Below, one piece after another: positions 190-63,022 of a DNA stretch of 64,000 nucleotides. Source of the stretch: Rhodoferax sp. (lineage in GTDB: Bacteria; Pseudomonadota; Gammaproteobacteria; Burkholderiales; Burkholderiaceae_C); assembly GCA_031386665.1 (NCBI GenBank), contig JANNCN010000023.1, forward strand, positions 10,572 to 74,571, in the 5' to 3' direction. Under the pieces are notes generated by a model. It was not told the DNA's origin. It saw only the letters and a list, made by a program, of their open reading frames with translations, and searched no databases. Made by a program: the position numbers and the translations under genes. Numbering within the stretch: position 1 is the stretch's first letter; the number at the start of each line of letters is the position of its first letter.

Positions 190-318
190 AAATCTGATAT
201 CACCGGTGATATCAGATTTCTTGTAAGGGTGGTAAAAATGTGGTTTGGGCCGATTTTTGAGCAAAATTGGCCCTTGGCCCTCTAATTTATTCATTAGTTT
301 GCTATATAAATAGTAGTA
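190..318 (-). repeat. AT-rich modular intergenic repeat, copy 1 (30-bp perfect palindrome 190-219, distal module, core)
   Basis: Reverse complement aligns with copy 29502-29624: TATAGCAAACTA..ATTAGAGGGCC core, CCAATTTTGCTCAAAAATCGGCC..CCACATTT distal module. AAATCTGATATCACC/GGTGATATCAGATTT palindrome at the far end. Confidence 0.6.
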
Positions 319-521
319 AATTGACAGATTGGTAATTTTGTTAATTTGCTACCCAACTGCCTAGCTACAAATCCATTGCCCGCGCCACGGCTTCAGCCAT
401 TCAAATCACGTCCACATCGGCTTACACCGGGCATTCCACAGTTGCCCATCACCCTCCGGGCACGAGCCCGAGACATTTTGGCTCTAGAAGTTCTGCTTGA
501 GCGCAATGTGAAATAGCAGCC

Positions 522-5648: not shown

Positions 5649-6032
5649 GGTGAAGCCTGCCAGACTGCCGCTGGTGCTAGCCGCAAGGCCGACGCGCAAG
5701 CGCCGGGTGGAAACACCGCACTGGAGGAACGTCCGGACTGCACAGGGCAGCGTAGCAGCTAACAGCTGTCCACTGAAACCCCGTCGCGCAAGCGGTGGGC
5801 ATAAGGTGAGGATCAGAGCAACAGAGACGAGTCAGGCCAGGGGTAACCTTGGTTTGGGTGAAACGGGCAATCTCTACGCGCAGCAATACCAAGTAGGCCA
5901 GCGTTGATGGGGCCCCCAGAGCTGGCGGGTAGGTAGCACCGAGCCGTTGAGCGATCAACGGCCCAGATTAATGGCAGTCACGTGAGGGGCAACTTTCACG
6001 CACAGAATCCGGCTTATCGGTGGGCTTCACAC
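5649..6032 (+). ncRNA. rnpB: RNase P RNA, bacterial type A
   Basis: GGAGGAACGTCCGGACT (P4 5' strand), CACAGAATCCGGCTTATCGG (P4 3' strand), GTGAAGCC/GGCTTCAC P1 pairing, T-run after the 3' end. Collinear with E. coli M1 RNA by eye. Confidence 0.85.
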
Positions 6033-9631: not shown

Positions 9632-9674
9632 AGCGCTGAGTTAGAGGACGAATGCCTTTGAAATCAGGCATCTT

Positions 9675-9803
9675 ATTTGCTATCTTTAATATAGCAAACT
9701 ATCTATATTATTAAAGAGATAGAGGCCTATATCATTCAAAAAAAGCGAATTTTGCCTCTTTTGGGTCATCAAATACCCAATTTGGGTATTTGATGACCCA
9801 AAA
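9675..9803 (+). repeat. AT-rich modular intergenic repeat, copy 2 (core plus 45-nt perfect palindrome 9759-9803)
   Basis: ATAGCAAACTATCTATATTATTAAAGAGATAGAGGCCTAT matches copy 29502 at about 37/40 positions, followed by 22-nt perfect arms around T9781. Confidence 0.7.
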
Positions 9804-29451: not shown

Positions 29452-29501
29452 GCGCTTCGCCCATGATCGGTGCTGTCCAGCGTGGCACGCAGTCAGCTAA
29501 G

Positions 29502-29624
29502 ATTGCTATAATATAAATAGCAAACTATCTATATTATTAGAGAGCTAGAGGTCTATTCCGTTCATAAATAGGCAAAGAATCCAATTTTACTCCAAATTTG
29601 CCACATTTGTGGTAAAAATGGCAC
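29502..29624 (+). repeat. AT-rich modular intergenic repeat, copy 3 (reference copy)
   Basis: ATTGCTATAATATAAATAGCAAACTATCTATATTATTAGAGAGCTAGAGGTCTAT core plus CCAATTTTACTCCAAATTTGCCACATTTGTGGTAAAAATGGCA distal module. Confidence 0.7.
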
Positions 29625-40550: not shown

Positions 40551-41179
40551 AACACATCACTTTTTATTTAGACTTCATTTCGCCCTATGCCTATTTGGCG
40601 TTTGAGGCGCTACCGCAGGTGCTCATGGGGACCAGCTACACAGTGACTTACAAGCCAATTCTGTTCGCAGCTTTGCTTAAACACCACGGCCAGTTGGGCC
40701 CCGCTGAAATTCCGACCAAACGCGAATGGACTTACCGACAAGTGCAGTGGCTCGCCCAGCGTCAGGGGGCTCCGCTTCAAATGCCTGCCGCGCATCCATT
40801 CAACCCGCTGGGTCTACTTCGTTTGGCGCTGGCCTGCGCGCCCGCCAATCGCTACGTGTGCGAGGTCATTTTCAAGCACGCTTGGGTGGGTGGCGCGGAC
40901 GCCTCTGGTGCAAATCGCCTGCAAGAGCTGGCTCAGCGTCTCGCGCCTCGTCTGGATGTGAACAGCTCCGAGGTGAAGGATTTGCTCAAAGCCAACACCG
41001 ACGAAGCGATTCAAAATGGCGTATTTGGCGTGCCAACACTGCAGGTGGATGGTAAAAATTTTTGGGGACTTGACGCTTTGCCCATGCTGCGCGACTATAT
41101 GCAGGGCGATGCGGGGTTTGATTCAGATGCCTGGGCCAATGCCGCTTTGCTGCCGATAGGCACTGCCAGGCGGAATTGA
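40547..41179 (+). CDS. 2-hydroxychromene-2-carboxylate isomerase family (DsbA-like thioredoxin fold)
   Basis: ITFYLDFISPYAYLA N-terminus and FGVPTLQVDGKNFWG. ATGA overlap with the DUF1289 gene. Confidence 0.8.
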   Translation: MKHITFYLDFISPYAYLAFEALPQVLMGTSYTVTYKPILFAALLKHHGQLGPAEIPTKREWTYRQVQWLAQRQGAPLQMPAAHPFNPLGLLRLALACAPANRYVCEVIFKHAWVGGADASGANRLQELAQRLAPRLDVNSSEVKDLLKANTDEAIQNGVFGVPTLQVDGKNFWGLDALPMLRDYMQGDAGFDSDAWANAALLPIGTARRN

Positions 41180-41222
41180 ACGGGCGCTGGTTCAGTTTGG
41201 CGTTGAATGGGTAGAATTGGAG

Positions 41223-41249
41223 AAAAAAGAACCTGCAGGTTCTTTTTTT
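41223..41249. terminator. Bidirectional rho-independent terminator-like hairpin
   Basis: AAAAAAGAACC TGCA GGTTCTTTTTTT, with A-run and T-run flanks. Confidence 0.65.
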
Positions 41250-41264
41250 CCAAAGGGTGCTGTA

Positions 41265-41333
41265 GGAACCCGTATTTTGAATCATTTAAGCCTCTAGCTC
41301 TCGAATAATATAGGTTTATTGCTATTAATAATA
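41265..41333 (-). repeat. AT-rich intergenic repeat, copy 4 (core only)
   Basis: Reverse complement AATGCTATATTATTAATAGCAATAAACCTATATTATTCGAGAGCTAGAGGCTTAAATGATTCAAA aligns with copies 2 and 3. Confidence 0.65.
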
Positions 41334-41352
41334 TAGCATTTTGAGGTTGATC

Positions 41353-41655
41353 ATGTTGTTGGCGGTGGTTGTCCTGAAAAGCCTGGTCGAAATCACCTTG
41401 ATGGTGATCTTCGGGCGTTTTGTATTGGGCCGTCTGATTGGCGTCCAACGCCAGAGCAATATCATTTGGCAGCTTTTGGACATTACTGCCAAGCCTGCGC
41501 TTCGGCTGACTCGCGCGCTCAGCCCTGGTTTTATTCTGGACTGCTACATTCCCTGGCTCGCAGCAAGCTGGCTGGCAGCCGTCTGGCTCATTGCCTTGAA
41601 GCTGAAAATCGGCATTTGCTTGCAAATCGGGCTTCTGGCCTGCAAAGTCAATTGA
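41353..41655 (+). CDS. Small integral membrane protein (YggT-like, tentative)
   Basis: Hydrophobic ~100-aa protein. GAGG lies 5 nt upstream of ATG 41353. Stop overlaps the TTG start of the DUF4212 gene. Confidence 0.45.
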   Translation: MLLAVVVLKSLVEITLMVIFGRFVLGRLIGVQRQSNIIWQLLDITAKPALRLTRALSPGFILDCYIPWLAASWLAAVWLIALKLKIGICLQIGLLACKVN

Positions 41656-46644: not shown

Positions 46645-46712
46645 TGGCCACACCTTCAATCTGCCAAATTGCCACATCAAAAATTGGCCTAACAACCCTA
46701 TAAACAATCGGC

Positions 46713-62822: not shown

Positions 62823-62938
62823 ATATCACCGGTGATATCACTTTGCCCTGAAAGTCGCAAAAAGTTAAAAATATGGGTTAAATATGCCTCTAGCTCTCGA
62901 ATTAATTCAATAGTTTGCTATTATAAATATAGCATTTT
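62823..62938 (-). repeat. AT-rich modular intergenic repeat, copy 5 (16-bp palindrome plus core)
   Basis: ATATCACCGGTGATAT (62823-38), then CCTCTAGCTCTCGAATTAATTCAATAGTTTGCTATTATAAATATAGCATTTT. Confidence 0.65.
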
Positions 62939-63022
62939 AGCGATCTCACAAGGTGTTGCACAAAGCCTGTTAACCCTAGTTTTAGCGCTTCAGCAGCGCT
63001 GTTCACCCCATCCACCCACCCC

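Follow-up and report, generated by a model that had tools for sequence, protein, structure and literature searches.

A new AT-rich interspersed mosaic repeat family, nearest to REP/BIME, in the intergenic DNA of a Rhodoferax genome

The described systems closest to the repeat family reported here are REPs and BIMEs. In the account of Nunvar (2010, PMC2817692), a REP is a short palindrome, imperfect and headed by a conserved GT(A/G)G, and the roles which that article mentions as proposed for REPs and BIMEs are protein binding, chromosome organisation and termination. As far as they are treated there and in Ton-Hoang (2012, PMC3333891) and Bertels and Rainey (2011, PMC3116915), REPs and BIMEs are sequences of Enterobacteria and Pseudomonas, and REPINs are mobilised by RAYT transposases. 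It is a long-standing question whether REP-like repeats are selfish DNA or do work for the genome, and the present family contributes an unusually clear signal to it. A literature search by sequence and by taxon found no published description of it. The family is a new interspersed mosaic repeat family, nearest to REP/BIME.

The likeness to REPs and BIMEs concerns several features. The element has hundreds of extragenic copies (more than 100), concentrated at gene ends and in convergent gaps. Its palindrome shows compensated changes and is combined with other conserved motifs into a mosaic, of which there are species-specific versions. As known for REPs, the palindrome is also targeted by an insertion sequence. 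Unlike in REPs, the palindromes of the element (types A to D) are flanked by A and T runs and lack a GTAG/GTGG head, and the best-conserved part is not the palindrome but a 70-nt non-palindromic core. In contrast to both REPs and BIMEs, four unrelated palindromes are combined with one core, at helically phased distances. Whereas a BIME consists of regularly spaced, alternating REPs together with linker motifs, each element holds one palindrome. A different repeat is described for Comamonadaceae including Rhodoferax ferrireducens and Polaromonas, namely the mostly intergenic BRE, whose function is unknown (Hot et al. 2011, PMC3110155). BREs are GC-rich (69%), about 90 bp long and arranged in variable-number tandem arrays, with up to 29 copies per genome (PMC3110155). 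Going by this description the two are distinct, as the present element is AT-rich and occurs in about 390 dispersed single copies.

The window, a stretch of 64,000 nucleotides, is part of contig C176 of a draft genome (G000; 4.46 Mb, 229 contigs, 57% G+C). A preliminary description of the window had listed five copies of an AT-rich repeat and had extrapolated their density to hundreds of copies per genome. All five copies are present, and an nhmmer profile built from the five window cores places the cores at the positions given. Applied to the whole 4.46 Mb draft genome, the profile yields 387 matches (E<1e-3), in agreement with the extrapolation. The matches are distributed over the two strands in numbers of 202 and 185. 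The median element length is 124 bp and the family totals 47.4 kb, or 1.06% of the genome, with a density of about one element per 11.5 kb. Two exact copies of the 22-mer ATAGCAAACTATCTATATTATT are present in the window, against none in 100 shuffles. The family accounts for many of the AT-rich islands in these genomes.

The anatomy of the element was read from an alignment of 368 copies with their flanks. Similarity sets in sharply, about 3 nt 5' of the motif TTGCTAT, and fades about 125 nt further on. The element consists of three modules in fixed order: the 70-nt non-palindromic core, a T-tract spacer, and one of four interchangeable palindromes (A to D). The core consensus of about 70 nt is AAATTGCTAT-N7-ATAGCAAACTAT-nn-ATATTATTCGAGAGCTAGAGGCC-TATTTTATTCAT, in shorthand TTGCTAT-N7-ATAGCAAACTAT..ATATTATTCGAGAGCTAGAGGCC..TTCAT, with free variation in the N7 and a few other positions. 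The GCTAT-N7-ATAGC inverted repeat noticed earlier within the core is real. A comparison across genera detected only a lineage signal and no base-pair covariation in the core; it is the sequence of the core that is conserved, not a structure. The T-tracts of the spacer repeat at intervals of 10-11 nt. The palindrome consensus sequences are AAAAAAGAACC-TGCA-GGTTCTTTTTT (type A), ATATCACCGGTGATAT (type B), ATACCCAA(A)TTGGGTAT (type C) and TTTACCACA-AT-TGTGGTAAA (type D), and the four types are unrelated in sequence to one another. Allowing up to 2 mismatches, a palindrome is found 3' of the core in 370 of the 387 elements (A 179, D 74, C 62, B 55). Exact palindrome sites lie on the 3' side of the core in 136 of 137, 50 of 57, 52 of 54 and 53 of 54 cases for types A to D, respectively. 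The preliminary description had seen a single distal module shared between copies. The sequence so described does exist, but it comprises the spacer and one of four alternative palindromes rather than one module, and the fragment of that module proposed for positions 46660-46700 is a weak palindrome only, with no profile match.

The distance from the end of the core to the centre of the palindrome is 31-32 nt in 49 copies, 40-42 nt in 274 copies and 52 nt in 37 copies, regardless of palindrome type. The spacing therefore shifts by one helical turn (approximately 10.5 nt) at a time. The palindrome stems have a mean length of 13-14 bp, with 97% Watson-Crick pairs. In type A the loop is variable (TGCA, TGTA, TACA, TCCA, CCCC) and the arms are kept. 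The outer arms are copy-specific, yet their pairing exceeds that of shuffled controls (0.58 vs 0.33 at position 14 of type D), and orthologous palindromes show compensated double changes. G.T and A.C mismatches are equally rare in the stems, and their balance is independent of the gene that reads into the hairpin. This balance fits a use of both strands, or a constraint at the level of DNA, and not an RNA made from one strand. The core sequences do not cluster by the type of palindrome attached to them (0.344 observed vs 0.317 expected), which suggests recombination between copies.

Copy 3 of the window, on the + strand, has its core at 29500..29565, identified from the sequence and by nhmmer (E=1.4e-16, the best match of the genome). 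The core reads TTGCTAT at 29503-29509, followed by ATAGCAAACTAT, ATATTATTAGAGAGCTAGAGGTC and TTCAT. The T-tract spacer, assigned from the sequence and the spacer classes, extends over 29566..29596 and leads to a type D palindrome at 29597..29616 (TTTGCCACA-TT-TGTGGTAAA, with one G.T pair). The cores of copies 2, 4 and 5 were likewise placed by sequence and nhmmer profile. Copy 2 (+ strand) consists of a core at 9674..9739 and a type C palindrome at 9763..9799, whose 17-bp perfect stem is GGGTCATCAAATACCCA-ATT-TGGGTATTTGATGACCC and whose outer arms are copy-specific. A small separate hairpin, ATGCCTTTGAAATCAGGCAT, is found at 9652-9671 (+), in the gap that separates the stop codon (9631) of the gene preceding copy 2 from the first base of the element (9674). 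A simple terminator scan flags it as terminator-like, and the gene upstream of copy 2 may thus have had a terminator of its own before the element was there. Copy 4 (- strand) has a core at 41277..41343 and a type A palindrome at 41221..41251, AAAAAAAGAACC-TGCA-GGTTCTTTTTT, with the shape of a two-way terminator; the hairpin is present in the minimum-energy fold, and the fold of the element strand has z = -3.3. The DNA 5' of copy 4 contains only weak overlapping ORFs, at 41341-41655 (+) and 41095-41625 (-), of which the gene caller chose the former at low score. Copy 5 (- strand) combines a core at 62873..62939 with a type B palindrome at 62823..62838 (ATATCACCGGTGATAT). The core of copy 1 (- strand, 257..323, nhmmer E=1.5e-13) is degenerate, as TTTACTAC replaces TTGCTAT and GAGGGCCAAGGGCC replaces GAGAGCTAGAGGCC; its type B palindrome at 190..219 is perfect over 30 bp. 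The window also holds, at 5652-6032 (+), an RNase P RNA of bacterial class A (Rfam RF00010, 193 bits), which is its sole Rfam match at gathering score.

For the genomic context, genes were called with a crude codon-usage caller of our own (4046 genes, 89% of the genome coding). The intergenic siting reported for the window copies applies throughout the genome, where 97% of copies are outside predicted genes and 13 of 387 are inside. A convergent gene pair surrounds 140 copies and a divergent pair 43, and tandem genes flank 80 copies that point in the direction of the genes and 86 that point in the opposite direction. An element is present in 131 (60%) of the 217 convergent gaps that measure 120 nt or more. 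The orientation of the element is unbiased in tandem gaps and unrelated to local GC skew (67 vs 72). The edge of the hairpin is located at a median of 42 nt from the stop codon of the gene running into it.

A scan of our own for terminator-like hairpins (6 or more perfect stem pairs, a loop of 3-8 and TTTT directly after) places 199 of the 345 intergenic hits (58%) inside elements. Type A (179 copies) provides a stem-loop with a T run on both strands and is the only palindrome type with a clear T run. The other, simple terminator scan, which flags the hairpin upstream of copy 2, left the hairpins of types B, C and D in the window copies unflagged, and the terminator form is therefore firm for type A only. 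Head-to-head pairs of elements within 100 nt of each other occur only twice. Pairs of elements also bracket single genes of 200-375 codons, for example the pair formed by C176:743-805 and C176:2195-2245 just upstream of the window, and there are about 10 similar places. Such bracketing is expected if elements mark the ends of single-gene transcription units. Judged by translation the bracketed genes are unrelated (pseudouridine-synthase-like, ProQ-like, a Bug/TctC-type binding protein, nitronate-monooxygenase-like), and a tie to a particular gene family was rejected on this ground.

The age of individual copies can be judged from orthologous sites. The site of copy 3, between an acyl-CoA dehydrogenase gene and a rhodanese-like gene, is filled in four genomes (G000, G004, G001 and G002), in all of them with a type D palindrome in the same orientation. 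It is empty in at least seven other genomes of the genus, where the gap measures 10-55 nt. Filled and empty alleles, for which the preliminary description had suggested looking in related strains, are thus found at orthologous sites. A further comparison was made with a MAG at about 90% identity, for which about 40 loci were taken from a scan for the signature pattern. Of approximately 30 comparable sites, 28 are filled in both genomes; one site (C26:12026 in G000) lacks the element that the relative has there (L021). Across the 28 ortholog pairs, identity is 90.1% in the coding flanks and 72.7% in the non-coding flanks. The 20 variable core positions are 71% identical (47% in non-orthologs), the spacer is 79% identical (45% in non-orthologs), and the 31 conserved core positions are 95.9% identical, the relative being off consensus at 2.2%. 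As the variable positions and the spacer are more alike in orthologs, the pairs share an ancestral insertion. The variable core positions and the spacer have drifted at about the neutral rate, and the conserved positions have hardly changed. Conserved and variable positions alternate within a few bases, which rules out gene-conversion tracts as the cause. The ortholog pattern points to site-specific purifying selection on each copy as its simplest explanation. Without such selection one could hardly account for 31 bases kept at 96% identity and those interleaved with them at 71%.

Over longer distances, orthologous copies follow the consensus of their own species. One apparently orthologous site (C161:6994 in G000, L063 in the MAG OTE_1_metabat_22) holds type A in the former genome and type C in the latter. 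Each of the two cores matches the consensus of its own species, and the right flank alone aligns well. The difference indicates either a replacement of modules or a repeated insertion at one site. A slower process is also at work: copies recombine with one another, or elements insert anew, or the family co-evolves with a trans-acting factor.

The distribution across taxa was assessed with a signature of the core, ATAGCWAACTAT-N13-GRGCTASAGG, or its non-degenerate form. With up to 3 mismatches, 23 of the 25 genomes of the genus contain the signature, each between once and about 360 times; several have 0-6 matches. In the family, 20 of 301 genomes (17 of 201 sampled genera) contain it with up to 2 mismatches, and at the same threshold 89 genomes drawn from 60 other families of the order gave no match. 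Two consensus sequences had no BLAST match among 72,556 plasmids. The carriers, uncultured 'Rhodoferax sp.' and Comamonadaceae MAGs, come from lakes, streams and groundwater. The internal spacing of 13 nt is fixed across the 17 genera, and the core exists in lineage-specific versions such as TATATAATACGAGGGCTAGAGG (one species group) and GACCATTTGACGGGGGCTAGAGG (another genus). Beyond close relatives the core occurs alone, over about 80 nt, with higher G+C and no A-D palindrome. The core is therefore the older part, onto which the three-part composite was built later.

Core-only elements are found in all intergenic contexts including divergent promoter regions, and some are located 4-35 nt upstream of a start codon. 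In low-copy genomes of other genera, for instance, four of them (L139, L149 (G112), L132, L147 (G213)) stop 8-35 nt upstream of start codons and have the same orientation as the downstream gene. The downstream genes are unrelated; from their N-termini we take them to be serC-like, pcm-like, pqqD-like and an aminotransferase. In some core-only elements the AGAGG or ACAGG of the conserved GGGCTAGAGG box is at the position of a ribosome-binding site, and in L132 AGAGG is followed after 8 nt by ATG.

Our preferred reading, which we hold tentatively and on the basis of comparative sequence evidence, is that an old REP/BIME-like mosaic repeat may now be kept as a boundary cassette, composed of a two-way terminator and a protein-binding core. 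A non-autonomous family would have spread long ago through the intergenic DNA of a Rhodoferax-like Comamonadaceae lineage, and its individual copies would now be held in place by purifying selection. The palindrome, bordered by an A run on one side and a T run on the opposite side, would serve as a hairpin terminator in both directions, and the core would be a sequence-specific binding site for a host protein. Through the phased and probably bent T-tract spacer, core and palindrome would keep a constant rotational setting on the helix. What is shown here is how the elements are built, how many there are, where they lie, that they have no preferred orientation, that their spacing is phased, and that orthologous copies are retained under constraint at specific sites; that they terminate transcription, bind a protein and bend the DNA is what we infer. 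The proposed roles of REPs and BIMEs agree with this scheme. A putative protein site, which the preliminary description had considered as a nucleoid-protein site, is compatible with the conservation of sequence and not of structure, with the fixed spacing of blocks, with the helical phasing and with purifying selection. The palindrome-less core of other genera occurs in all intergenic contexts, and the role of the core is therefore not termination as such. Further observations sit less well with a boundary cassette: a clear T run is confined to type A, a perfect stem of 13-14 bp is longer than a terminator needs, 31 constrained positions exceed the need of one ordinary DNA-binding protein, and the 10.5-nt steps in spacing could be mere slippage of a repeated spacer unit.

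A more specific proposal, which is possible but which we regard as rather doubtful, is that the core may be the recognition site of a chromosome-associated Comamonadaceae protein that co-evolves with its hundreds of sites. In this genus the core would be coupled, at fixed helical phase via the bent T-tract spacer, to interchangeable cruciform or terminator palindromes, and the elements would serve as genome-wide transcriptional or topological boundary elements, about one per 11 kb. Co-evolution of sites and protein would explain why the consensus is species-specific even in orthologous copies. If this proposal is true, the family is a functional part of genome architecture and a clean case of REP-like repeats under host-level selection. 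The phased three-part architecture predicts a protein on one face of bent DNA beside a hairpin; should this hold, gene boundaries in the lineage would be largely built from one repeat family.

The family may, alternatively, represent a purely selfish miniature mobile element, MITE- or REPIN-like and with no host role, whose uniformity would result from recent bursts or gene conversion. A high copy number with a wide range (0 to about 360) among species within one genus would suit such an element, as would orthologous sites that are filled in some genomes and empty in others, a consensus of its own in each species, the change of palindrome type at one orthologous site, and cores that do not cluster by palindrome type, suggestive of recombination between copies. 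We nevertheless consider this explanation unlikely. The relative at 90% identity has 28 of about 30 comparable sites in common with G000. The conserved positions are about 4% diverged and the interleaved variable ones about 29%, whereas fixed selfish copies are expected to decay evenly. The lack of an orientation bias relative to GC skew also argues against a selfish element, as do the termini. Across the 368 copies, the 5' end (AAATTGCTAT...) and the 3' end (palindrome and T run) have no inverted similarity that would constitute a TIR. A check for target-site duplications, likewise suggested in the preliminary description, revealed none of at least 4 bp at a fixed offset: no 4-mer recurs on both sides of the element at a fixed pair of offsets more than the conserved internal sequence accounts for, although a TSD of 2 bp may exist. 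One comparison of a filled with an empty site likewise gave no clean target-site duplication.

A partnership with a RAYT was rejected as well. The genome encodes a single RAYT-like Y1_Tnp protein (C8:11354-12061, PF01797, 45.5 bits, 235 aa), whose gene has a different inverted repeat on its two sides, AATTGGGGTCAGATTCCAATT and its reverse complement, with the nearest element 7 kb off. This repeat belongs to a separate small family, with 38 occurrences of AATTGGGGTCAGA. Of the 25 genomes of the genus, 23 carry a homologue of the RAYT-like gene, regardless of the copy number of the element. The suggestion of a MITE/REP-type element is thus to be divided: the element is of the REP/BIME kind in being abundant, extragenic, palindromic and present or absent at given sites, and it is neither a MITE, having no TIR and no TSD of at least 4 bp, nor a RAYT-linked REP.

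Several MITEs are known to carry functional cargo. Correia/NEMIS of Neisseria, ERIC, RUP and BOX, the last with modules boxA, boxB and boxC, are of this kind, and some of their copies are terminators or protein-binding sites. The element resembles them in its length of about 100-150 bp, in being non-coding, intergenic and modular, and in its presence or absence at orthologous sites. It differs from these MITEs in that TIRs, a TSD and a parent IS with matching ends were not detected, and in that its copies are old and constrained, not recent. MITE-type small elements have been reviewed by Delihas (2011, PMC3184786).

The element could also be a small independent transcription unit, that is, an sRNA gene with a promoter in the core and a terminator in the palindrome, or else a 3'-UTR RNA module; both had been considered in the preliminary description, and we judge them improbable. 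The invariant order of core, spacer and palindrome, the independence from the orientation of neighbouring genes that would suit a self-contained gene, purifying selection on every copy, and a consensus that folds better than shuffled sequence (z = -3.3 to -4.3) speak for an sRNA. A promoter of the sigma-70 type is, however, found at no fixed position on either strand of the 368 copies, and none is found in the window copy; at any given place, a promoter-like site occurs in at most about 7% of copies on either strand. The element matches no Rfam family at gathering score. With the threshold relaxed to E 10 it gives RT-14 only, at chance level (E=4.6, 16.7 bits against a cut-off of 48.1). The core displays no Watson-Crick covariation, and G.T pairs are not in excess on either strand when sorted by gene context; the asymmetry of wobble pairs (G.T vs A.C), used as a test for a strand-specific RNA hairpin, thus gave no signal. 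A 3'-UTR module requires one orientation, and the two orientations are equally common in tandem gaps (80 vs 86).

Other candidate motifs were rejected. Compared by eye, the sigma-54 consensus does not fit because GG and GC are too close by one base, nor does the IHF consensus, whose TTR part coincides with variable positions. A mini-ORF on the reverse strand (ATG AAY AAA ATA GGC CTC TAG) has a poorly conserved start codon, and its frame is broken in several copies.

Uptake signals offer a further parallel. In Haemophilus uptake sequences a conserved core is followed by helically phased AT tracts, and terminator palindromes are often formed. USS of Pasteurellaceae and DUS of Neisseriaceae reach a density of about one per kb, with many copies inside genes, and their inverted pairs often form terminators; the element resembles them in its conserved core with AT tracts in helical phase and in its lineage dialects. 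That it is such a DNA-level signal for a DNA-handling machine, e.g. a DNA-uptake sequence, is nonetheless highly improbable: the conserved 12-mer and 10-mer at fixed spacing, the lineage 'dialects', the T-tracts phased at about 10.5 nt and the orientation-independent position at gene ends would agree with it, but the element is ten times sparser (about one per 11.5 kb) and nearly absent from genes (3% inside predicted genes), its constrained sequence is far longer than any known uptake signal, and several genomes of the genus have 0-6 matches.

The insertion sequence that targets the palindromes is a member of the IS1595 family. A complete copy of 1.05 kb is located outside the window (C50:632-1681) and encodes the Pfam domains DDE_Tnp_IS1595 and Zn_ribbon_IS1595. 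A kinship of the IS1595 ends with the element itself is unsupported, as the sequence in common is GGGCTA only. The IS has terminal inverted repeats GTGGGCTATCCCCTTAGCTCCAC and is accompanied by an 8-bp duplication, CCTGCAGG in consensus and CCTGCAAG for the complete C50 copy. It is inserted at the exact centre of type A palindromes and thereby splits at least 13 elements. This insertion parallels the known targeting of REP sequences by IS elements (PMC1525189). Ends of this IS are found at about 23 contig ends of the MAG assembly (e.g. C146:94, C131:113 and C145:94), which are explained by the IS that targets the palindromes and breaks the assembly there.
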